In this document: positions 14,941-25,473 of the stretch, piece by piece
Layout: the number at the start of each line of letters is the position of its first letter
Numbering within the stretch: the first letter of the stretch is position 1
Assembly: GCA_031290615.1 (NCBI GenBank)
Contig: JAITNF010000075.1
Location: 5,845-69,844, forward strand
Source: Desulfovibrio sp.
GTDB lineage: Bacteria > Desulfobacterota > Desulfovibrionia > Desulfovibrionales > Desulfovibrionaceae
Direction: 5' to 3'
Length of the DNA stretch: 64,000 bases
Notes under the pieces: generated by a model
Told to the model about the DNA's origin: nothing
Seen by the model: only the letters and a program-made list of their open reading frames with translations
Databases searched by the model: none
Made by a program: the position numbers and the translations under genes

Positions 14941-15618
14941 CTAGAACATGAAACGAAGACCCAGCAGGAATTCGTTGTTGTAGGGATCGTTGGAAACTTT
15001 AGCTTTACTCCCTTTTATAGAGGTGCTGACCTCGTTGTAGCCGAGGCCCACAAAACGGTAGGCAAGATCCAAGGCAAAACTGTCGTTAAAGTTGAAAGCT
15101 ACACCCGCGCCCGCGTTCCAGGCGAAATTAGTAAAGTGATCGTCCATGGAATATCTTGTGGAATCGTAATCGGTGTAATCGTAACCGGTGTAATTGAAGG
15201 CCATGCCCAGCCCCACGCCGATATATGGGGTGAAGGTGGTATTGTTGTGGAAATCCCAGAAGAAATTGGCAAAGATCGTAGAATTGTTCCATGTGCCCTT
15301 GATGTCTGTCACATTTTTTCCGTTACTGCTCCAGCTTTTCTCGCTGTTACCGCGCAGGACGAATTCGATTTCAGCGCGAACGGGAATCATTTGCTGCGGC
15401 CAGAAGTCATAACCGGCAGCCAGACCGCCTCCCAGAGTAAACTGGCCGTATTGGTCCAGACCCGTACCCTGCAAATACGAAGAACGACTCATTTCCCCCG
15501 TGTTTTGAAAGGACATCAGGAATTTTGGGGCAAGATACATCCCCGTGCCTTCCGCCGCCGCCATATCGGGCAGCAGCAAGGCGAAAGCAAGCACAAAAAC
15601 GGCAATACCACGTTTCAT
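14941..15618 (-). CDS. Outer membrane beta-barrel protein (OmpA/Opa-like 8-stranded family)
   Basis: Signal peptide MKRGIAVFVLAFALLLPDMAAA; PVRAEIEF, FTPYIGVGLG, FAWNAGAGV, LDLAYRF; terminal LRFMF. GAGGAGG RBS. Confidence 0.88.
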   Translation of the reverse strand: MKRGIAVFVLAFALLLPDMAAAEGTGMYLAPKFLMSFQNTGEMSRSSYLQGTGLDQYGQFTLGGGLAAGYDFWPQQMIPVRAEIEFVLRGNSEKSWSSNGKNVTDIKGTWNNSTIFANFFWDFHNNTTFTPYIGVGLGMAFNYTGYDYTDYDSTRYSMDDHFTNFAWNAGAGVAFNFNDSFALDLAYRFVGLGYNEVSTSIKGSKAKVSNDPYNNEFLLGLRFMF

Positions 15619-16109
15619 GACACAAACCTCCTCAAATGTATTTCCCTTCCGTAAAAAAGCAATTCCAAAATCAATCCGGTAATGGCCAATAAGCCGGAAA
15701 CGCAAGAATTTTTATCTTCGCCACTTTTTCAAAAATTGTCAAAATATTTTTTTGTTGGGATCAGTACTCATTAATTGAAATAAAAAATGACACAAGCAGC
15801 CAAACATATTGCTGTAAAGTTATAGAAATTCCTGCGGAGAAGCGATTCAAAAATTATTGCATGGCGTCTGTTTCCGACGACACGTCCGAACATCATACCA
15901 GATTTTTCTGGGAATATAGCAATCCGCAAGGCCAGAGACATTCAGAAGGTTATGTTGCTTAAAGCTGGGAGGATTTGGTGGAGATATAGATGGTAAAGCC
16001 GCCCCGCTGATGCCGGAATTGCCTGAAGACGAACCTGACAATTCTTCCACGTCAGATTCGTACAAAAAATCGTCCAAGCGTTCAAGCCGGTTCGACGATT
16101 TTTTTATCT

Positions 16110-17120
16110 TTACCAGTCACCTTTGCCCGTCGGGCGTTCGGGGAAATGAAGATCACCCGCCGCGTCGCGCAATTGCGCGGCTGTGACGGCACGAATGAAA
16201 AAATTCTCTTCAAGCCATTGCAGAAAAGAATAAATTTTTTTGAAAAGCGCTCTGGAAGCAGACTTGTCCGGCACATTGGGCGATGCGCCGGGCAGCATTT
16301 CCGAGGAGTGCCAGAACAGATGCAGCACCCTGCCACCGCGGAACAGGTGCAGGCGAGTTGCAAAACGCATCATCCGCGCACTGTGCCAGACAGGGTTGGC
16401 GCTGACAGCGCTCCAGAAGTGAAAGGAATCCAGCGGCGCCGAGCTGTGGACACACTTATGCCACAGACGCGCGACAGTCGGAGCAAGCGCGACCTGCGTA
16501 ACTGGCGATTCCAGAAGCCGGATGTCCTGTCGGCTGTCAAGGCCGCCGTACCAGTAAGGGTCTGCCGGCGCAAGAAAGTGATCCGCCCCGTCTCTGAACG
16601 CGCGCAGGGGGCAGACAGAACTGTCCAGTGTGATGCCCGCTTCTTGCAGCAAGGGGCGCAATTCTGATTTCATATCCCATCGTCCCATTCGAAAACTCGT
16701 CAGGGGCATGCTCTGGAATTGCCGGCCCGCTGTCAGAAGGGACTTCAAGCATTGGCGTAGCAGGTCGCGGTCCATCCGGTGCGTACGATCCGGCTGCCCT
16801 GTTTCCACCGTGTTCTCGCGCAGGGGAGGGGTACTCCAGTGGTGCAAGTGCGCCGCTATTTCCGCGCCGCACTTGTCACGCATAAAGGCCAGCACACGCC
16901 GGGCTTCGGGGTTGTCAAAAACCGTGTAGGCGCAAAAAAGCGTGAGCGGAAAGCCCAGTTCCCGCGTAAGAGGAGCCAGACGCGGCAGCAAGGCCACATT
17001 GTGCACACCGCCGGCCGCAGAATAGCGTCCGGAAAAAAGCCCTTCCTCCTCCACGTCCAGACTCACAATGACATACAGAGGAAATTTGCGGGGAGAAGGG
17101 GCGTTTGCATCTTTTTTCAT
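16110..17120 (-). CDS. WalW-like polysaccharide deacetylase family protein
   Basis: SLDVEEEG, AHLHHW, SFRMGRW, DSSVCP, FWHSSE motifs. ATGA overlap with the GT4 stop. Confidence 0.75.
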   Translation of the reverse strand: MKKDANAPSPRKFPLYVIVSLDVEEEGLFSGRYSAAGGVHNVALLPRLAPLTRELGFPLTLFCAYTVFDNPEARRVLAFMRDKCGAEIAAHLHHWSTPPLRENTVETGQPDRTHRMDRDLLRQCLKSLLTAGRQFQSMPLTSFRMGRWDMKSELRPLLQEAGITLDSSVCPLRAFRDGADHFLAPADPYWYGGLDSRQDIRLLESPVTQVALAPTVARLWHKCVHSSAPLDSFHFWSAVSANPVWHSARMMRFATRLHLFRGGRVLHLFWHSSEMLPGASPNVPDKSASRALFKKIYSFLQWLEENFFIRAVTAAQLRDAAGDLHFPERPTGKGDW

Positions 17121-18202
17121 GCTGGCTTCCGCCTGTTTTCCCACAAACGCGTGAAAAGCACTTCGTGCTCCGCCGCCATGCGGCTGAAGGAAAAATCCCG
17201 TTCCACTCGCTCCCTGCCTGCGCGGCCCATATCGTCGCAACGGCGTGGTTCACAGAGCAGGGACAGACAGTTGTCGGCGAGCACGCGGGCATCTCCGACC
17301 GGGGAAAACAGGCCGTTGTCCTCCACAAGTGCCGGAATGCCCCCAACAGCGGTGGCACAGACCGGTAGGCCGCAGGCCATGGCCTCCAACAGCACGTTGG
17401 GCTGACCTTCACGGACGGAGGCGAGGGCAAACAACCGGGCTTCGCCGTAATGGGGGAACACGTCGTCCGTGCCGGGGAAAAAGTCGATGTTGCTTCCGGC
17501 GGCATGATTTGCGGCCCAAGCACGCAGGGTGGATCTTTCCGGCCCATCGCCCACAATGCGTAGGCGAGCACGCGGCATGCTCTGTAAAATGTGTTCGAAC
17601 GCCCGGAAGAGCGTCAGGTGATCCTTGTCGCGGGCCAGACGTGCCACACACAGAATCAACGGCGGGCGTGCCGAGGGATGAGGTTCCGCAGGGGCAAAGC
17701 GGTGCGAGTCAATGCCGTTGAAGATGCAGGTCAGATGCCCAGCAGGCGCGCCGAGAGACAGGAGTGTCTCGCGCAGTGCTCGGGAATTGCAGATTATATG
17801 GTCCGTCAGGCGCCAAAGCAGGCGCTCGTGCTGGCGGCGCGGCCCGCCGCCGCCCCTGCATGTGCCCACGATAACTGGCGTTCCGGCCGGCCGGCCCCAT
17901 ATCCGGCCCCAGATGTTGGGCAAAGCCGTGCAGGTGACAAGGATGTCCGGCCTGTGTATTTTTAGCGCCCTGTGAAGGCGTAGAAAGAACAGGGTGGGCA
18001 CGTCACGGCCCGTGCCCAGGTGGTTGAGTGATATTCCGGCCTCAAGAGCAACATCGTCCATGTCTGTCCTGCCGGCGAGCGTCAGCATAGCCGGGACAAA
18101 ACGCGACCTGTCCAGGCGGCGCGCAAGCTCCAGCGTCTGGCGTTGTGTGCCCCCGAAACAGAGGTCTTCCATAAGAAAAAGAATGTTTAGCGGCTGCGTC
18201 AT
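17117..18202 (-). CDS. Glycosyltransferase family 4 (GT-B)
   Basis: GGTQRQ, CNSRA, VARLARDKDH, EGQPNVLLEAMACGLPV. Confidence 0.9.
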   Translation of the reverse strand: MTQPLNILFLMEDLCFGGTQRQTLELARRLDRSRFVPAMLTLAGRTDMDDVALEAGISLNHLGTGRDVPTLFFLRLHRALKIHRPDILVTCTALPNIWGRIWGRPAGTPVIVGTCRGGGGPRRQHERLLWRLTDHIICNSRALRETLLSLGAPAGHLTCIFNGIDSHRFAPAEPHPSARPPLILCVARLARDKDHLTLFRAFEHILQSMPRARLRIVGDGPERSTLRAWAANHAAGSNIDFFPGTDDVFPHYGEARLFALASVREGQPNVLLEAMACGLPVCATAVGGIPALVEDNGLFSPVGDARVLADNCLSLLCEPRRCDDMGRAGRERVERDFSFSRMAAEHEVLFTRLWENRRKPA

Positions 18203-18470
18203 TTGCTATACCGTCATCAAACCCGAAATCCTTTACTCTCAGCGTCCGGAGGTTTCAGATGCCGTATTGGTTGAATGTTATTGCAGAGCTTTCTGCGCCG
18301 GAAAACCGCGCAATGTGTTGATTCCATGCCCGGATCCGGATATGTATCTTGTCTCGCATAATTGAACCAAAATACAATACACTCCGTAAAAATTCAAGTC
18401 ACGGCGGCATGACATATCAGCGCGTTGAAAATGCTTTACGGATCCCAGGATCGGGCGGTTAGAAGATCTG

Positions 18471-19871
18471 TTATGTCTCTTCAAACGGCGGCGGCGGCCG
18501 CCAGGCCCACAACAGGGTTAGGAGCGGGGACAGTCCGGCGATTTCTGCCACTTCACGAGGCGCAACAAGGACCGCGCTCTGCCACAGGATAAAGGAGGAT
18601 GCCGCTGCAGCTAAAAGCAGTCCCCATTGGCCGGTGGACATGGGTTTGACGGTCCACTGGAAAAAGAAAACCGTAAGCGCCGCCACCCAGATTTTTGTCA
18701 CCGTCAGGGAAAGGGCCGCGCCTTCCAACGGCGCGGCCGGAATGAGCGCGCAGCAGCAGACAATGTTGACAATGAGCCCACTCAGGTAAAACAGAAAAAG
18801 CAAATTGTGCCGCCGCATGCCTATCATGACGTAGGCGGCCAGATTGTGCAGAAAGGCCGTGGCGAGACATGGGGTGAGCAGTCGCTGGGCCGTGACGGCA
18901 ACGCGGTAATCTTGGCCGTAGATGAAGGGCAGAAGCCTGTCGCTCTCGACGCAGATCACAAAAATCATCGGCAGGGACGCCGCCCAGAGGGAGCGTGCCG
19001 TCTGGCCGGAAAGTCTGTGGAAAGTCTGGCGATCTTCACTCCACAGGCGCGTCAGAAGTGGGAAAATCACCTTGCCCAAAAGTGCGCCGGAAAGCAGCAC
19101 CGTAAGCCCCTCCACCATCTCCCAGGCCACGCTGTAGCCACCGACAGCCCCGTCTCCCCCGTACTGTTTGAGAAAAAAGACGTTGATCTTGTTATAAAAC
19201 ATGGCGCAAAGGCTTATGCCGGTGAAAACAATGCCGTGTTTCATCCGGCGCGCCAGACGCAACGAGTCCGTAAAGCTGATTCCAGCCAGTGGATTACGAC
19301 CCAAGGCAAGGCAGGCGAAAGCCATGCAGAGAAGGGATTCCACCATTTTGTACATGGCGATCATGAGCGGCGGTGTATCAAGCAAAATACAGACAAAACC
19401 GTAACCGATGCCGATGAGCGCGGAAGGCGCACGTATGCGCATTTCCATATCCTGGCGTCCACGCGCCTCGCAGAGCCCGAAAAAGGATTCGCTCACTCCG
19501 TCAAGACCGAAGCCAGCCGCGACGCAGATGACGACAAGACGCAGTTCCGGCGTGTAATCCTGCACGCCAGTCGCCGCCCAGGCAATGCAGAGCGCCACCA
19601 GCAAAAGCGTGAGTTTGAGCCAGGTAACGCCGCCGAGCAGAACAAGGGGACGTATTTCCCGGCGGGCAAAGGAAGAAAGCAAAAAATCCGTAAGGCCCAC
19701 ATCCGCCACTGTTTTGACAAGATAACCGTATGACAGGGCCAGCATGATCTGCCCCAGCATATCCTTGCTGTGGCGGGCGAGAAGGATGGTGAAAGCTGCC
19801 CAGGCCAAGTCGCGCGCCCACTGCGCGCCCACGATATATCCGAGTCGCCTGGGGATGCTTTTCAGCTTCAT
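18471..19871 (-). CDS. Wzx-like oligosaccharide flippase (MOP superfamily)
   Basis: About 12-14 TM segments; DVGLTDF, AVGGYSVAWEMV, LGKVIFPLLTRL, YGQDY, PLEGAALS. Confidence 0.8.
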   Translation of the reverse strand: MKLKSIPRRLGYIVGAQWARDLAWAAFTILLARHSKDMLGQIMLALSYGYLVKTVADVGLTDFLLSSFARREIRPLVLLGGVTWLKLTLLLVALCIAWAATGVQDYTPELRLVVICVAAGFGLDGVSESFFGLCEARGRQDMEMRIRAPSALIGIGYGFVCILLDTPPLMIAMYKMVESLLCMAFACLALGRNPLAGISFTDSLRLARRMKHGIVFTGISLCAMFYNKINVFFLKQYGGDGAVGGYSVAWEMVEGLTVLLSGALLGKVIFPLLTRLWSEDRQTFHRLSGQTARSLWAASLPMIFVICVESDRLLPFIYGQDYRVAVTAQRLLTPCLATAFLHNLAAYVMIGMRRHNLLFLFYLSGLIVNIVCCCALIPAAPLEGAALSLTVTKIWVAALTVFFFQWTVKPMSTGQWGLLLAAAASSFILWQSAVLVAPREVAEIAGLSPLLTLLWAWRPPPPFEET

Positions 19872-19880
19872 TTGAGCGAA

Positions 19881-20795
19881 TTACCTGTTTTTCCCGCCGA
19901 AATGCACCACCGTTTTAAAACCGGGTTTGAGTTCCAGGTCGTGGTTAGGCACTTGCAGCTCCACCATATAGTACGAAGGTTTTGACACGTCCATCTCGGT
20001 GGAAATCCAAGAAATTGCGGTGACGACCGCCGAGTATTTTTTGTTGTTCAGGGATGGAACTTCCACCATGGCGGAATCTCCCGGTTCGATGCCGGTAATT
20101 TCCGCTTCATATACATGCACTTGAACGAGCATGGGATCAAGCTGTCCCACCTGAACGGGCGTAGCCCCCGCGTTCAGCAGAGTGCCCGGATTTACCGCGC
20201 CGCTCAGAGAAAGCACATGCCCCCGGATGGGCGAGATGAGCGTAAGAGTTTGGGGCAGTTGCTCCTCCGCCCTGACGGGTACGCCAAAATAGCCTTGCAG
20301 TTCTTTTAGGCGGTCGGCGAAGATGCTTTCCTTTTTACGGAGAGTTGCGTTGAGCAGCTCAATGCGTTGATTGAGGGAGTGTACGTCGTCTTCCAGACGT
20401 GACGAGGCCTGGTTAGATCCCAATCCAGAAGCCGCAAGTTGGTGCGTCTTGTTGCGCTGGGCAATGGTTTCCGCAAGTTGACGCTCCATGTTCAGCATCT
20501 GGCTCCTGGTTTCTTCCGTATTCGCGCCGGTTGTCACTTCCCGCTGCAGGACGCGTTCCGCCTCTTCCTGCAGGTGATAACGCAAGAGGGGAGAGTCGTT
20601 CTCCACAGCGTCGCCGGGCTTTACCAGGACTTCGTCCACTATGCTGTTGAAGGGCATGGGTACGGCGCGGGTGACGGTGGTGACAATCTTGCCGGTGAGG
20701 ATGGTGGAATGGATCTCTGCGGCATGGACGCGACACGGCATGAAAGACAGGCACAAAAACGCGCAGGACAGAAATATGGACATGGTTTGCGGCAT
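19881..20795 (-). CDS. Efflux periplasmic adaptor (membrane fusion protein, HlyD/RND-MFP family)
   Basis: VDEVLVKPGDAV lipoyl motif, coiled hairpin, SPIRGHV, VYEAEITGIEPG, LKPGF. TAATG overlap with the TolC gene. Confidence 0.85.
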   Translation of the reverse strand: MPQTMSIFLSCAFLCLSFMPCRVHAAEIHSTILTGKIVTTVTRAVPMPFNSIVDEVLVKPGDAVENDSPLLRYHLQEEAERVLQREVTTGANTEETRSQMLNMERQLAETIAQRNKTHQLAASGLGSNQASSRLEDDVHSLNQRIELLNATLRKKESIFADRLKELQGYFGVPVRAEEQLPQTLTLISPIRGHVLSLSGAVNPGTLLNAGATPVQVGQLDPMLVQVHVYEAEITGIEPGDSAMVEVPSLNNKKYSAVVTAISWISTEMDVSKPSYYMVELQVPNHDLELKPGFKTVVHFGGKNR

Positions 20796-22255
20796 TACAG
20801 AACCTCCCTAGCGGGCAGCCCCAAGAAATGCTCCTGTAAAAGACCGGAAATGTACATCAAGGTCAGCCCGGCGAGCCGCAGGTCAAGTTCAGCCTCAATC
20901 ATGGCGATGTGCGCCCTGACCATGCCTTCCCGGCAATCAGCCACAGCGGAAAACTGTTCCGTGCCCGCCTTGAAGGATATCTGAGCTTCTTTGAACTGCA
21001 TTTCCGCTGTCTCAAAACGCGTTTGCGCTAGCCTGAACTGGGTGCGCGCCAAGGTGATGTTCTGCTCTGCCTGGAGCCACTCGTTGGAATAATCGGTGCG
21101 CTTGCGCGACATTTCGTGGAAAGCCTGAGCCTTGGTCATTCTGGCTGTCTGTACGCCCCGATAGCGACGGCCCCAGTCAATCAGCGGGAAGTCCAGATTG
21201 AAATGCAGGAAATAGTCTTCCATACCGCCCGGCGGCTGATATTGGCCGGCCGGAGGATATTTGTTGAAGTGCAGGGTCATGTCCGGCACATATTGCGCCC
21301 AAGACACCATGATATTGTAATCCGCCAGTTTCACCTGGCCACGCAGCAGATATTCCTCTTCAAGCATGGGCCAACGGTCGTCCCAGGCAAGTTTGCTTCC
21401 CTCAAAGCCCGTCAGAATTGTGTCGGCGCTTCGGGTGTCTATCTGCAGACGCTGGGTGGGGTCCACTCCGGCCAGGATTTTGAGCTGGGTACGCTGGATG
21501 GTTTCCTGCATAACTGTCTGCTCCACCATCAGCTCCAACTCGCGATCGTGTTGCCTGGCCCAATTTAGGGAAGTACCCTGACGGCCTTCCACGGATTCCA
21601 CCTGTTGCCAGTAAGCCACAAGCTTCTTGCCCAAAGGCAGAAGTTTCTTCTGGGCCGCCGCGATTTTTTCCTTGCCCTGAAGCTGCAAATAGGCCTGCGC
21701 TATTTTGTAAATAGCTTCTCCGACAGCCTTGCGGTGCATGGCTATGGCCAGATTGACCATAATTTTTCGCGCCTGATGCTGAAAATAGGTGGCAACGGGA
21801 TTGGGGAAATCGGCGTAAAATCCGATGTCAGGTTTTGTTTTGCCGTAATCGCCCGGCGTGTCACGGATATCCTGATTATACCGGGTCATGTTGTTGGAAA
21901 CACTGATGGTCATGCGCGGTTCCGGCAGATACTGCCATACGGCGCTTGTCAGCTCCACGCGTTTGATCTCAAGGTTTACGGCGCTGTTGACAAGCAGGGG
22001 AGACTGCTGAATGGTCAGATAGACGCAGTCTTCAAAGGAAAAAACCTTGTTGGGGTCGTAGAGATTGGGGACGGCACCCTCAAGTTTTTCCCTGTTTTCC
22101 ACCGGCACGCCGGGGGCTTCTTCCAGCCAGTGTCTGGCGGGGAGTTCCGGCGACTTCAGCCCGGCCTTGTTGGAAGCGCATGCAGAAAAAAGGAAAAGCA
22201 GACACAAGCAGAGCGCCGTCCACAAACGCCGTGTCCTCGAGAGTGATTGGGTCAT
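20795..22255 (-). CDS. TolC-family outer membrane efflux protein, lipoprotein-type
   Basis: Lipobox FLFSAC; two OEP repeats (QQSPLL..., FPLIDWGRR, ARTQFRLAQTRF). Confidence 0.8.
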   Translation of the reverse strand: MTQSLSRTRRLWTALCLCLLFLFSACASNKAGLKSPELPARHWLEEAPGVPVENREKLEGAVPNLYDPNKVFSFEDCVYLTIQQSPLLVNSAVNLEIKRVELTSAVWQYLPEPRMTISVSNNMTRYNQDIRDTPGDYGKTKPDIGFYADFPNPVATYFQHQARKIMVNLAIAMHRKAVGEAIYKIAQAYLQLQGKEKIAAAQKKLLPLGKKLVAYWQQVESVEGRQGTSLNWARQHDRELELMVEQTVMQETIQRTQLKILAGVDPTQRLQIDTRSADTILTGFEGSKLAWDDRWPMLEEEYLLRGQVKLADYNIMVSWAQYVPDMTLHFNKYPPAGQYQPPGGMEDYFLHFNLDFPLIDWGRRYRGVQTARMTKAQAFHEMSRKRTDYSNEWLQAEQNITLARTQFRLAQTRFETAEMQFKEAQISFKAGTEQFSAVADCREGMVRAHIAMIEAELDLRLAGLTLMYISGLLQEHFLGLPAREVL

Positions 22256-22272
22256 GGTTGTCCCTGTTTCGT

Positions 22273-24933
22273 TTATTCCTGGCAAAAAAATTTTAAATGG
22301 TGCATGGTTACAAGTACTTGCCCGCGCACGTCGCTCACCTGGGCGTCAAAACATTGTGTCGTCCCATCGTCCCAGGATTTGCGCATTTGTATGCGCCGCG
22401 CTCCGGACATGGGCAGTAGCGTATTGAAAAAGACAAAGCCCGCAGCGTCGAGCCGCCAGAAACGCAGAGCCGCAAGAATTTCCGCCGCAGACGTAGAGTC
22501 TGCGCGCTCGCCGGCCGGTTCTGCTACAGCCATGAAAGCGGCCTGCACAATTCCCTCAACAATACAAAGAATATCAGTATAGCGAGATTTTTCTTTTTTG
22601 GCAATGCTTGCGGTTCGGGCAACATTTTTGTCACGGGCACACTCATGCTCCGCAGCCATTCCCGCGCGGTACATTCCTCCGGGCAGGGCCGCCCAATCCG
22701 TGAGAAGCCGCCAGGACGCGGTTAGACCCAGAGCGTCATAAAATTTTCTGGTGAAGGTATTTTCTTCGCCGTCGTCGTCGTCGGGCGATGCAGGCCAGAG
22801 GGGACGTGCCACATAGGGGGCGGCCGTCATGTGTACCGTGCCGCTTATTATCTCGGAGATGGTGCCAGCACGGCGCCCGTTTTGAGTTATATCCTGCACA
22901 AAAAGGTCCGCACGGCACATTTGCGTCATGAGACAGTCGTATGTGAATTTTGCTTGTGCTTTTACCGTGATACTGCATTCTCTGGTGACGCCCGGCGGCA
23001 GCAGTGGCGTATCATAAAAACGGACATCCGAAAGACCGTGCCCGGCAAGTTGCGGAAAGAGCATGCAGGCGCCTTCCACAAGTGCCTGCATGGCGTAACT
23101 CACAGGAAGACAGGGCATATCCGCGCGCAGGCGGACAATATGCGCGGCAAGGGCTGGGTCAGCAAAACGAGAAAAGTGGCAAGAACCATCCAGCGCAACG
23201 GCCGAGGGAGGGGAGACCGCGGAGAGAAAGACAAGGGTGGAAATATCCGATACTTCCACAAAGCGTCTCCGGCGTTGAGCCTCGATCGCGACATTGCGCT
23301 CCGGCGACGCATCCGTCGGTATTCGCGCTACAGGCGGTGTGTCTGCTCCGGCCGTGCAGACGACGTGCGCCAGATCCCCCACGCAGGTCACGCCAAGCAA
23401 ATTTTCAAAAAGTAGACGCACGCCCATTACTTCCTCAATTTCCTGCGCAAGAAGGGGGAAACGGCTGGATCTCAGGGAGAGGTCATAGCGCAAATCCGTT
23501 TCCGGCTTGATGCTGTCCACAGGGCATGCGGCGGCTTTTGCCAGTATTGTAGCGAGACTTTGCATGCTGACGGCAAAACGCGGGTCTGTCCTGGAGAAAA
23601 CTTGCGGCGCGGTGGAAGCTGGTTTGACGTCCGGCGCCGTTTCCGAAATCGTTTCCGGAGCACCGGCGGCTCTTCGTGCCAGCAGTGCGGCGCTTACAGC
23701 CGCACGGGGCAAATTTCCGAGAGCATGGAGGCGGGCGCAGACCAGACGCATCTGCTCGGTCTCGCGGCCCTTGCGTCCCGCGGGCAGGCATATGGCCAGG
23801 GGTTCATTATCGGTGATGAGGCCGCACAGGGTGTCCTGCGGGCCGAGTTCAAGAAAATAGCTTATGCCCTGCCCCTCGTACATGGCGCGTACACAGTCCG
23901 TCCAGCGGACAGGGCTTTCGTCCAGGTCTGTGATACAGCGACAAATGGAAGGCTGGTCCACGGGATAAAAATCCGCCGTGACGCCGCTGAGGACGTTGAT
24001 ACACGGAGCCTGCATGGGCAGGGCATTGAGGCGGCGCAGGGAGAGATCGCGCAGAATGCGCATGCCCGGATGGTGGTAGGCAAGGCTCACATTGAGCACA
24101 ATTGCCGGAACACGCTGTTTGCGCAAACTCTTGCGAGCCTCCATCAGGGCGTCCCGTGATCCGCTAACGATAAATTGCCGGGGAGTATTGTAATTGGAGA
24201 CAATCAGCCCCGGCCAAGTTTCACGCAATTGCTCCATCACGGCGACGTCGGCATGTACGGCCATCATGCCGTTTTCCCGCGTGGACCGCGCTTCCATTTC
24301 GGCCATTTGCATGGCGCGGGTGTCCAGGATGTGCCAGGCCACTTCCGGCGTATAGATACCGGCAAGGCACAAGGAGACAAGTTCCCCGAGGCTGTGGCCG
24401 CAAAGCAGGGCTGGATTGAGGCCCAGGGCTGCGAACTGGCTCCATTGGGCGTATTCCAGCAAAAAGAGATAAGGTTGTTGCCAGCGGGTGTGGCTGATTT
24501 TTTCCGCATCCGGCTCGTCCATAAGAGCCAGGATGTCCCAATCTGCGGCGGCCGCGACGCGATCCATGCCTGCTCTTGCTGCCGGAAAATTGTCGTACAA
24601 TTTCCGCCCCATATGGGGCCAGACGTTGCCTAGGCCGCAGCAAACCACGGCAAGGGATGGCGGATCCCCCCGGCCGAGCCACAAACCCATCGAAGCAAGG
24701 ACGCTGATATCTTTCGGCCCTGGACCGGCGGACAGAATCGGCAGTTTCTCGCGCCAGCGCACGCTTACGCTGCCCAGTCGCCAGATATGACCTGCCTGTG
24801 GCAGATCAACGTAGATCACACCGTCAAGAGCCAGTTCAGAGTCAAATTTTTCGTCGACAGCTTCCGCCGTCTCCTCGATGGATTTTTCCGGGTTTTGACG
24901 GGCTGAATTTTTTGTATTGTCAGTGGTTGACAT
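22273..24933 (-). CDS. Polyketide/fatty-acid synthase-like protein: acyltransferase, ACP-like and dehydratase (double-hotdog)-like domains; no ketosynthase
   Basis: AT: CCGLG, WQQP, GHSLGE, NYNTPRQFIVSG, VSLAYH, PVRW, FLELGP. ACP-like: TDLRYDLSLRSSRFPLLAQEIEE. DH-like: LAAHIVRLRADMPCLP and distal EGIVQAA. Confidence 0.8.
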   Translation of the reverse strand: MSTTDNTKNSARQNPEKSIEETAEAVDEKFDSELALDGVIYVDLPQAGHIWRLGSVSVRWREKLPILSAGPGPKDISVLASMGLWLGRGDPPSLAVVCCGLGNVWPHMGRKLYDNFPAARAGMDRVAAAADWDILALMDEPDAEKISHTRWQQPYLFLLEYAQWSQFAALGLNPALLCGHSLGELVSLCLAGIYTPEVAWHILDTRAMQMAEMEARSTRENGMMAVHADVAVMEQLRETWPGLIVSNYNTPRQFIVSGSRDALMEARKSLRKQRVPAIVLNVSLAYHHPGMRILRDLSLRRLNALPMQAPCINVLSGVTADFYPVDQPSICRCITDLDESPVRWTDCVRAMYEGQGISYFLELGPQDTLCGLITDNEPLAICLPAGRKGRETEQMRLVCARLHALGNLPRAAVSAALLARRAAGAPETISETAPDVKPASTAPQVFSRTDPRFAVSMQSLATILAKAAACPVDSIKPETDLRYDLSLRSSRFPLLAQEIEEVMGVRLLFENLLGVTCVGDLAHVVCTAGADTPPVARIPTDASPERNVAIEAQRRRRFVEVSDISTLVFLSAVSPPSAVALDGSCHFSRFADPALAAHIVRLRADMPCLPVSYAMQALVEGACMLFPQLAGHGLSDVRFYDTPLLPPGVTRECSITVKAQAKFTYDCLMTQMCRADLFVQDITQNGRRAGTISEIISGTVHMTAAPYVARPLWPASPDDDDGEENTFTRKFYDALGLTASWRLLTDWAALPGGMYRAGMAAEHECARDKNVARTASIAKKEKSRYTDILCIVEGIVQAAFMAVAEPAGERADSTSAAEILAALRFWRLDAAGFVFFNTLLPMSGARRIQMRKSWDDGTTQCFDAQVSDVRGQVLVTMHHLKFFCQE

Positions 24934-24948
24934 GGCATAAAAAGCTGT

Positions 24949-25473
24949 TCAGGACAGGTACACTGCCACCAACCCTTGGGGCGGATCAATATGCACGGCT
25001 CGTCGGCCGGCGTCAAAACCCAGGATAAAGCAGGGCTGCGCCGGAAAGAGCACTTCCTCTCCGGCGTCTGTCAGAATAACCCAGATATCCTGTCCGGCCG
25101 GACATTCCAGATGGTCAAAACGTCCCAGCCGTTGTCCGTCCGGCAGAATTACATCAGCGCCGAGCATGTCCCGCACATAGAATTCGTCCTCAACCAGAGC
25201 GGGGAGGCAATCGCGGTCAACAAGGAGTTTCCTCCCGCGCAGAACCTCGACGGCCGAACGGTCTGTTATGCCTTCAAAGTACACCAGCATACATCCCTGG
25301 TGGTTACGACTGGAGAGGGCTTTGACGGGTATGGGAGAGGTTTGGCCGTCGGCAAGCCATAGAGGTGCGTCAAGCGGCAAAAGAGAATCCGCATGCCAGT
25401 CAACGCGTACTTCCCCCTTGGTGCCGTGTGGCCGAAGCAGTGTGCCCAAATGAATCAGTGCGCCGTACGGCAC
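24949..25473 (-). CDS. rimM: Ribosome maturation factor RimM
   Basis: RPHGTKGEV, FEGITDR, DEFYVRDMLG, PRC barrel; position after rpsP and KH. Confidence 0.93.
   Translation of the reverse strand: MPYGALIHLGTLLRPHGTKGEVRVDWHADSLLPLDAPLWLADGQTSPIPVKALSSRNHQGCMLVYFEGITDRSAVEVLRGRKLLVDRDCLPALVEDEFYVRDMLGADVILPDGQRLGRFDHLECPAGQDIWVILTDAGEEVLFPAQPCFILGFDAGRRAVHIDPPQGLVAVYLS

Follow-up and report, generated by a model that had tools for sequence, protein, structure and literature searches.

The heterocyst glycolipids of Nostoc and Anabaena depend on an HglE-type PfaA-like synthase, on HglT and on the transporter DevBCA together with HgdD/TolC, and the bacterial ceramide pathway of Caulobacter consists of Spt, bCerS and CerR, that is, of an alpha-oxoamine synthase (AOS), a GNAT-type acyltransferase and an epimerase-family reductase. 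Pumps of the MacB type (type VII ABC) draw their substrates out of the periplasmic leaflet. The combination of a polyketide synthase (PKS) with an AOS is a proven route to sphinganine, exemplified by SgaAB of Pseudomonas fluorescens MYb115 (Peters et al. 2025, PMC12134224). The locus studied here occupies positions 16110-24933 of a 64,000-nucleotide stretch of Desulfovibrio DNA (the window; contig C81, positions 5845-69844, of a 1.59-Mb genome in 92 contigs that is 93.6% complete). It comprises six minus-strand open reading frames (ORFs) of the same orientation, free of internal stops, for a protein with acyltransferase, acyl carrier protein-like and dehydratase domains (AT-ACP-DH), a TolC-type outer-membrane factor, a periplasmic adaptor (membrane fusion protein, MFP), a flippase of the MOP superfamily, a family 4 glycosyltransferase (GT4) and a protein with a predicted polysaccharide-deacetylase fold (the deacetylase hereafter). 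With a probability of about 0.55, the window carries one segment of a conserved envelope pathway of the Desulfovibrionaceae, which builds a glycosylated lipid, likely a sphingoid-type amino-lipid, and delivers it to the cell surface.

The initial annotation had already described six intact, co-oriented genes, and the ORF and junction coordinates agree with it. It had further seen in them a system for the synthesis and export of an acyl-glycoconjugate, and this part gains support from gene neighbourhoods well beyond the source genome, but the six genes are probably only a segment of a larger pathway. The main biosynthetic partners lie outside the window, in an AOS operon on contig C57 and in a pair of genes for a GNAT-like protein and a reductase on contig C34. 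The AT-ACP-DH system is carried by all 14 of the same-genus genomes sampled, and homolog searches place the nearest relatives of the six genes in Desulfovibrio metagenome-assembled genomes from termite guts. Literature searches returned nothing specific on this Desulfovibrio cluster or on Desulfovibrio sphingolipids.

Like SgaA/SgaB/SgaC (PMC12134224), the Desulfovibrio system combines a putative type I PKS-like source of acyl-ACP with an AOS and has a linked reductase gene, and the supercluster of a sister genus even holds a complete PKS of the iterative type beside the AOS, a phosphopantetheinyl transferase (PPTase) and a short-chain dehydrogenase/reductase (SDR). Unlike in that system, the Desulfovibrio PKS has lost its ketosynthase (KS) and, in the termite clade, also the insert at the ketoreductase (KR) position, the AOS is not assignable to Spt, and the gene set is extended by glycosyltransferases, deacetylases, AsnB, a MOP flippase and a predicted tripartite exporter. 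With the heterocyst glycolipid system it shares a glycosyltransferase, a domain order of the PfaA-like kind (AT-ACP-DH here, KS-AT-ACP-KR-DH in relatives) and, for its presumed export, a MacB-type ABC transporter with MFP and TolC. However, Desulfovibrio has in addition the AOS, the deacetylases, an amidotransferase and the MOP flippase, its pump genes are split between loci, and both the MFP, with 33.1 bits against the DevB model (TIGR02971, cut-off 129), and the ATPase, with 169.5 bits against the DevA model (TIGR02982, cut-off 295.8), stay below the thresholds of these families. The gene families of the triad Spt/bCerS/CerR are all present (on C57 and C34), as matched by family and with a sub-threshold signal for GNAT, whereas the acyl donor would be a PKS remnant and not an ACP with an acyl-ACP synthetase. 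Finally, the set of an FtsX-type permease that carries a MacB periplasmic domain, an ATPase encoded on its own, an HlyD-type adaptor and a TolC-type duct recalls MacAB-TolC and other type VII pumps, whose uptake from the periplasmic side fits the need for a separate flippase; by contrast, the permease and the ATPase are encoded apart from the adaptor and the duct in the source genome, and the ATPase of D. desulfuricans bears a fused glycosyltransferase domain.

The conserved core operon and its probable, dispersed partners

Gene order was compared among 80 genome loci retrieved by alignment to the AT-ACP-DH protein, and the counts cover 62 loci with enough flank for the core order, 64 for the divergent AOS operon and 48 for GT4 plus deacetylase. 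The order AT-ACP-DH, TolC, MFP, MOP is kept in 59 of 62 Desulfovibrio loci, and the other three run off their contigs. The conserved unit is this four-gene operon and not the block of six genes assumed previously, as the GT4 and deacetylase genes follow the MOP gene only in the window and in its closest termite-gut relatives (L001-L003; 3/48 loci). Two contigs with Desulfovibrio AT-ACP-DH, TolC and MFP genes (L057 and L060) have been assigned to bins of Odoribacter splanchnicus and Bulleidia sp., which is probably mis-binning.

In 51 of 64 loci, the core operon is paired divergently with a second operon that encodes the AOS, a glycosyltransferase GT4a, a deacetylase of which that in the window is a paralog (~42% identity), a further glycosyltransferase GT4b and AsnB. 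The source genome keeps this AOS-GT4a-deacetylase-GT4b-AsnB operon intact at C57:14381-21175 (locus L082, 8381-15175), between recN and rpsA. A stretch of about 2 kb without a long ORF lies there between recN and the AOS gene, at the usual position of the AT-ACP-DH operon in most Desulfovibrio. In D. piger ATCC 29098 (L021), this operon appears to be reduced to AOS-GT4a-AsnB, as tblastn detected neither the deacetylase nor GT4b, and the set of tailoring enzymes therefore differs from one species to another.

The AOS belongs to the BioF/Kbl/Spt family and scores below the equivalog cut-offs of Spt, BioF and Kbl alike. Its identity as a plain BioF was considered and rejected for the genus, given that D. 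desulfuricans and D. falkowii hold a separate, better-scoring bona fide bioF. In the source genome, no other alpha-oxoamine synthase was found, at the completeness given above; either bioF is lost or unassembled there, or the cluster AOS may have a second role. For AsnB, the closest NCBIfam model is TIGR03108, with 610 bits, below its cut-off.

All parts of the pathway occur together within ~38 kb in one sister genus (g36; genome G038, contig C10). This supercluster starts with genes for a GT4, AsnB, a second GT4, a complete PfaA-like PKS, a PPTase, a GNAT-like protein, an SDR/epimerase-family reductase, a GT2 and the AOS. It continues with FtsX, ABC, TolC, MFP, unknowns, a GT1, a radical-SAM/SPASM protein, an amine oxidase and a DUF2142 protein, and ends with a deacetylase, the window-type GT4, GT4a, MOP and a GDSL hydrolase; the MOP gene stands ~11 kb from TolC-MFP on the opposite strand. 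In a second sister genus (g44, locus L085), a gene for an NMO-KS-AT-ACP-KR-DH protein is flanked by those for the AOS, Bac_transf, Wzy_C, a PPTase, a GNAT-like protein, a reductase and two GT4s. Homologs of the MOP protein (30-44% identity) likewise adjoin genes for the window-type GT4, GT4a and the deacetylase in other families of the phylum. A radical-SAM/SPASM protein recurs beside window-type GT4 and MOP homologs of two distant lineages (L117, 12325-13911; L124, 9042-10352) and has no counterpart in the window.

The source genome further holds, at C34:8588-10770, a translationally coupled pair of genes for a GNAT-like protein (380 aa) and an SDR/epimerase-family protein (347 aa), which are 46% and 31% identical to their homologs encoded behind the PKS and PPTase genes of the sister genus. 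The reductase resembles lipid reductases of the HpnA/OleD type, and the pair is a possible equivalent of bCerS/CerR.

In D. desulfuricans, the orthologs of the window GT4 (65% identity) and deacetylase (66%) form a divergent pair in a separate locus, together with glk, hldE, an ABC ATPase-glycosyltransferase fusion, a MacB-type FtsX, a GT2, a small protein, a phosphodiesterase and an EamA transporter. The parts of this locus are dispersed in the source genome over C8, C21, C78 and C84, with FtsX and ABC on C8, the GT2 on C21 and the phosphodiesterase on C78, and neither hldE nor glk was found in the 93.6% of the genome available. In the reduced genome of this termite-gut lineage, the pathway genes would be scattered over at least four places, and the GT4-deacetylase pair would have been re-joined to the export operon directly downstream of rimM.

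The probable inner-membrane part of the pump

It had been supposed previously that the transporter differs from DevBCA, which is probably wrong. Four TolC-type and five HlyD-type genes are present in the source genome, and contig C8 (3146-5052) carries intact genes for a MacB-type FtsX permease (396 aa) and an ABC ATPase (235 aa) without an adjacent MFP gene. Beside this pair, 3 kb are devoid of a long ORF. The permease matches the MacB and ADOP models, and its 72%-identical ortholog in D. desulfuricans, as well as the homolog in L118, carry the MacB_PCD and FtsX domains. The ATPase ortholog of D. desulfuricans (660 aa) includes a fused GT1-type (Glycos_transf_1) domain that is missing in the C8 ATPase. 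The genome therefore holds every part of a MacB-type (type VII ABC) pump, namely FtsX with a MacB core, an ATPase, an HlyD-type MFP and a TolC-type outer-membrane factor, split between C8 (FtsX and ABC) and C81 (MFP and TolC).

In other lineages, these parts stand side by side. The order FtsX-ABC-TolC-MFP was found in three sister genera (g36, g44 and g47) and in a distant family (f26). In g47 the AOS gene directly precedes it, and in G465, of the distant family, it is extended to FtsX-ABC-TolC-MFP-MOP, with genes for the window-type GT4, GT4a and the deacetylase alongside on the opposite strand. When compared with the source genome, the TolC and MFP proteins of these four operons match only the TolC and MFP of the window, and their FtsX and ABC proteins match those on C8. 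The window MFP is the reciprocal best hit of the MFPs in the operons of G038, G164, G295 and G465, with E = 1e-26 to 1e-33, the next-best MFP reaching 1e-4 to 1e-10.

Because of this synteny, the reciprocal best hits and the C8 pair devoid of its own adaptor, we propose that C8 probably supplies the missing pump in trans, and that the MFP and TolC of the window are partners of a MacB-type ABC transporter. The MOP flippase would then probably not be the pump and would supply the periplasmic leaflet instead. Its placement in the pump position was considered as well, and was demoted once the FtsX-ABC-TolC-MFP synteny had been found in other lineages. With a DevCA/MacB-type pair encoded in trans, the system would therefore resemble Hgl/DevBCA more than the initial annotation held, and the MOP flippase would add a step to it.

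Proteins and gene arrangement in the window

All domain calls made previously for the six proteins were recovered in an HMM domain scan, or, for the DH and the deacetylase fold, by structure prediction. The AT-ACP-DH protein (22273-24933, minus strand; 886 aa) was examined with Pfam, NCBIfam and an alignment of 13 homologs, from which its invariant columns were taken. Its FabD-like acyltransferase domain (23878-24645, minus strand; residues 97-352; Acyl_transf_1, E = 1.5e-28) has an invariant Ser181 in the motif GHSLG, Arg206 and His287/288. The ACP-like domain (23362-23559, minus strand; residues 459-524), with the unusual motif LRSSRFP, gives a weak PP-binding match of 18 bits (E = 0.0035), under the curated cut-off. 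Its Ser489 is invariant and is aligned by phmmer with the phosphopantetheine-bearing serine of AcpM.

For the C-terminal third of the protein (~320 residues) there was no Pfam match, and a single-sequence search of the PDB with this region gave nothing useful. A profile built from 55 sequences found the DH domain of CurJ (3kg8, E = 4e-4), and the AlphaFold2 model (pLDDT 87) was matched in Foldseek only by DH domains of PKSs (E = 1e-14 to 1e-11, TM ~0.7). According to these models, this part is a PKS-type double-hotdog DH domain (22276-23241, minus strand; residues ~565-886) with His598, Pro610, Tyr732, Glu793 and Gln797, in which Glu793 replaces the usual Asp. Among the 55 homologs, His598 is kept in 41, Pro610 in all 55, and Glu/Asp793 and Gln797 in 51 each.

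The protein thus shows the features of type I PKS/PfaA-like enzymes in the AT Ser-His dyad, the carrier serine and a DH with His and Asp/Glu-xxx-Gln. No KS, as needed for elongation by a type I PKS, was found in the 886 residues with Pfam and NCBIfam, and the KS part of the sister-genus PKS matches only FabF-like genes on C89 and C80 in the source genome. The protein is 35% identical to the AT-ACP part of the complete 2398-aa NMO-KS-AT-ACP-KR-DH protein of g44, and on this alignment the Desulfovibrio protein therefore appears to be a remnant of a PfaA-like PKS that lacks the KS and the KR. Most homologs (1100-1480 aa) have an insert of ~250 aa between ACP and DH, at the KR position, which is absent from the termite clade. 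A profile search with the insert returned only insignificant SDR and phosphatase matches (E = 0.08-0.17), and by its position it may be a decayed KR.

The TolC/NodT-type outer-membrane factor (20795-22285, minus strand) measures 496 aa from the TTG at 22285 or 486 aa from the ATG at 22255; two stretches match Pfam OEP (80.8 bits, above the cut-off), and a probable lipoprotein signal reads LFSAC. The HlyD-type MFP (19881-20795, minus strand; 304 aa) has an N-terminal signal or anchor and an HlyD_D23 match of 51.2 bits, above the cut-off. The 466-aa Wzx/PST-like flippase of the MOP superfamily (18471-19871, minus strand) matches Polysacc_synt_3 (PF13440) with 51.2 bits against a cut-off of 23 and PF01943 with 31.6 against 28.2, and is by these scores a MOP/Wzx protein. 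The 361-aa GT4 (17117-18202, minus strand), the ortholog of GT4_364 in the hldE/ABC glycan locus of D. desulfuricans, shows the GT-B pair of Glyco_transf_4 and Glycos_transf_1 domains (PF13439, 62.9 bits; PF00534, 104.3 bits), with E ~1e-30 for the GT4 families, and its closest NCBIfam model is TIGR03088 (E = 3.8e-41, below the cut-off).

The last protein (16110-17120, minus strand) counts 336 aa from an ATG that overlaps the GT4 stop. It had no Pfam or NCBIfam match, and sequence and profile searches of the PDB gave nothing useful. Its AlphaFold2 model (pLDDT 90) was matched in Foldseek by 3rxz (E = 5e-12, TMt 0.68), then by HP0310, PuuE and ArnD, the entries after 3rxz including 3qbu, 3cl6 and 8t0j. 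The predicted structure is a deformed (beta/alpha) barrel of the polysaccharide-deacetylase fold (CE4 superfamily, PuuE/HP0310/ArnD branch). In the family alignment, the motifs DVEEE, beginning at D22, and HxHxW, with H91 and H93, are invariant, and D22 and H91/H93 are candidate equivalents of the Asp-His-His metal site.

The genes are tightly packed: the TolC stop and the MFP start share one nucleotide (TAATG), MFP and MOP are 9 bp apart, and GT4 and deacetylase overlap by 4 nt (ATGA). MOP and GT4 are separated by a spacer of 268 bp (18203-18470; 47% GC, lineage-specific) with a weak terminator-like hairpin at 18398-18413, in which searches for repeats and for relatives found neither. The initial annotation had allowed that this gap of about 270 bp might divide two unrelated operons. 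The spacer does not look like such a border, because the same gap measures only 23-26 bp in the three closest relatives.

Upstream, rimM (24949-25473, minus strand) ends 15 bp before the AT-ACP-DH gene and has a promoter-like site (24988-25016) within its 3' end. In the termite clade, the AT-ACP-DH gene directly follows rimM of the ribosomal cluster ffh-rpsP-rimM, at the position where trmD is expected, and in L001, L002 and L004 it overlaps rimM by 14 bp. Downstream of the cluster, at a distance of 400 bp and behind an AT-rich spacer, lies a gene for an outer-membrane beta-barrel protein (14941-15705, minus strand; OMP_b-brl, E = 1.7e-13) with a faint signal of PagL, a lipid A deacylase (E = 0.0098).

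Values of dN/dS, computed against three relatives with rimM as the comparison gene, range from 0.12 to 0.24 for the six genes and from 0.17 to 0.27 for rimM. All six genes are under purifying selection similar to that on rimM, as had been suspected for the cluster at the outset.

Proposed route, competing explanations and significance

In the proposed pathway, the acyltransferase would load an acyl group, either of the carboxy-acyl (malonyl) type or a fatty acyl from fatty-acid synthesis, onto the ACP of the same protein, where the DH domain may modify it. Condensation of this ACP-bound group with an amino acid by the AOS encoded on C57 would give a keto-amine lipid, which the GNAT-like protein and the SDR reductase encoded on C34 would N-acylate and reduce. 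GT4 enzymes would then add sugars, deacetylase-fold proteins would remove N-acetyl groups and AsnB would amidate the product. After the MOP flippase has moved the lipid-linked product to the periplasmic leaflet, the MacB-type ABC transporter encoded on C8, with the MFP and TolC of the window, would extract it to the outer membrane or the surface, as DevBCA-HgdD does with heterocyst glycolipids. A more specific proposal, which we put forward tentatively and regard as rather doubtful in its entirety, is that the KS-less PKS remnant of gut and termite-symbiont Desulfovibrio is devoted to loading and carrying acyl groups for an Spt-like oxoamine synthase, and that the resulting glycosylated sphingoid-type amino-lipid reaches the surface by two-step export, first through MOP and then through a MacB-type ABC/MFP/TolC pump with split genes, a route not yet described for a bacterial sphingolipid or glycolipid.

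Several observations weigh against a sphingoid-type glycolipid pathway. No KS and, in the termite clade, no insert at the KR position is there to account for the acyl chain, and the invariant Arg206 and an AFHH motif fit a malonyl-type (carboxy-acyl) substrate, which would not yield a long-chain base. The AOS is equidistant from the structures of KBL, BioF and Spt, and the GNAT assignment is sub-threshold (E ~1e-3). The position of the window-type GT4 and deacetylase genes beside hldE in D. desulfuricans also fits a role in the lipopolysaccharide (LPS) core. As to the pump, the orthology of TolC and MFP rests on 21-32% identity, and the phyletic patterns of FtsX and AT-ACP-DH, which agree at the genus level (g1, g42, g48, g64 and g68), may reflect relatedness and were not used as evidence.

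It is unlikely, though conceivable in a genome as visibly rearranged as this one, that two unrelated units were simply juxtaposed by genome shuffling and that the GT4 and deacetylase are enzymes of the LPS core or another glycan that landed downstream of the export operon. Such an origin would account for their position after MOP in just 3 of 48 loci, for the spacer with its hairpin, for the D. desulfuricans orthologs that stand elsewhere with hldE, glk and a GT2 in divergent orientation, and for the spread of that locus over C8, C21, C78 and C84 without hldE and glk. However, the same D. desulfuricans locus holds the FtsX/ABC pair, the apparent partners of the window MFP and TolC, and genes for the window-type GT4, GT4a and the deacetylase lie within a few kb of a MOP homolog in five of seven distant contexts as well as in the g36 supercluster; the short MOP-GT4 gap in the three nearest relatives also speaks against juxtaposition.

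The product could alternatively be an acylated or amidated exopolysaccharide (EPS) built on undecaprenyl phosphate in a Wzx-type scheme, where AT-ACP-DH would provide an acyl decoration after N-deacetylation, in the manner of Nod factors (NodB/NodA/NodF). MOP/Wzx proteins normally flip sugars linked to undecaprenyl pyrophosphate, the closest models of GT4 and AsnB are PEP-CTERM/XrtA EPS-locus types (both below cut-off), Bac_transf and Wzy_C flank the PKS in L085, and a deacetylase with a GNAT-like acyltransferase would suit de-N-acetylation followed by re-acylation. Yet the Desulfovibrio core has no Wzy, Wzz/PCP or Wza partner, the AOS that stands beside AT-ACP-DH in most loci would have no role in this scheme, and MacB-type pumps with TolC are known to handle lipids, lipoproteins, peptides and glycolipids rather than long polysaccharides. 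We consider an EPS product improbable, though viable. Less probable still is a new class of tripartite pump without an ABC transporter, in which MOP would be the energising inner-membrane partner of MFP and TolC. Their genes are adjacent in all 59 complete Desulfovibrio loci, 9 bp apart in the window and with no other transporter in the operon, but orthologous TolC-MFP genes directly follow FtsX-ABC in g36, g44, g47 and f26, with MOP far away in g36, and an intact MacB-type pair without an adjacent MFP is present both in the source genome and in D. desulfuricans.

Among the sulfate reducers of the human and animal gut, Desulfovibrio species such as D. piger, D. desulfuricans and their relatives are the principal ones, and bacterial surface molecules that are glycolipids or resemble sphingolipids are known to shape host immunity. 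A conserved pathway for such a surface molecule in this genus would be a concrete target for lipidomics. The glycolipid pathway proposed here would also allow a test of how a flippase feeds a tripartite extractor of the MacB type, and would be an example of the decay of a PKS to a carrier and loader module. Finally, a termite-gut lineage with a genome of 1.6 Mb keeps every part under purifying selection despite the loss of neighbouring genes such as hldE and glk, which speaks for the importance of the product at the cell surface.

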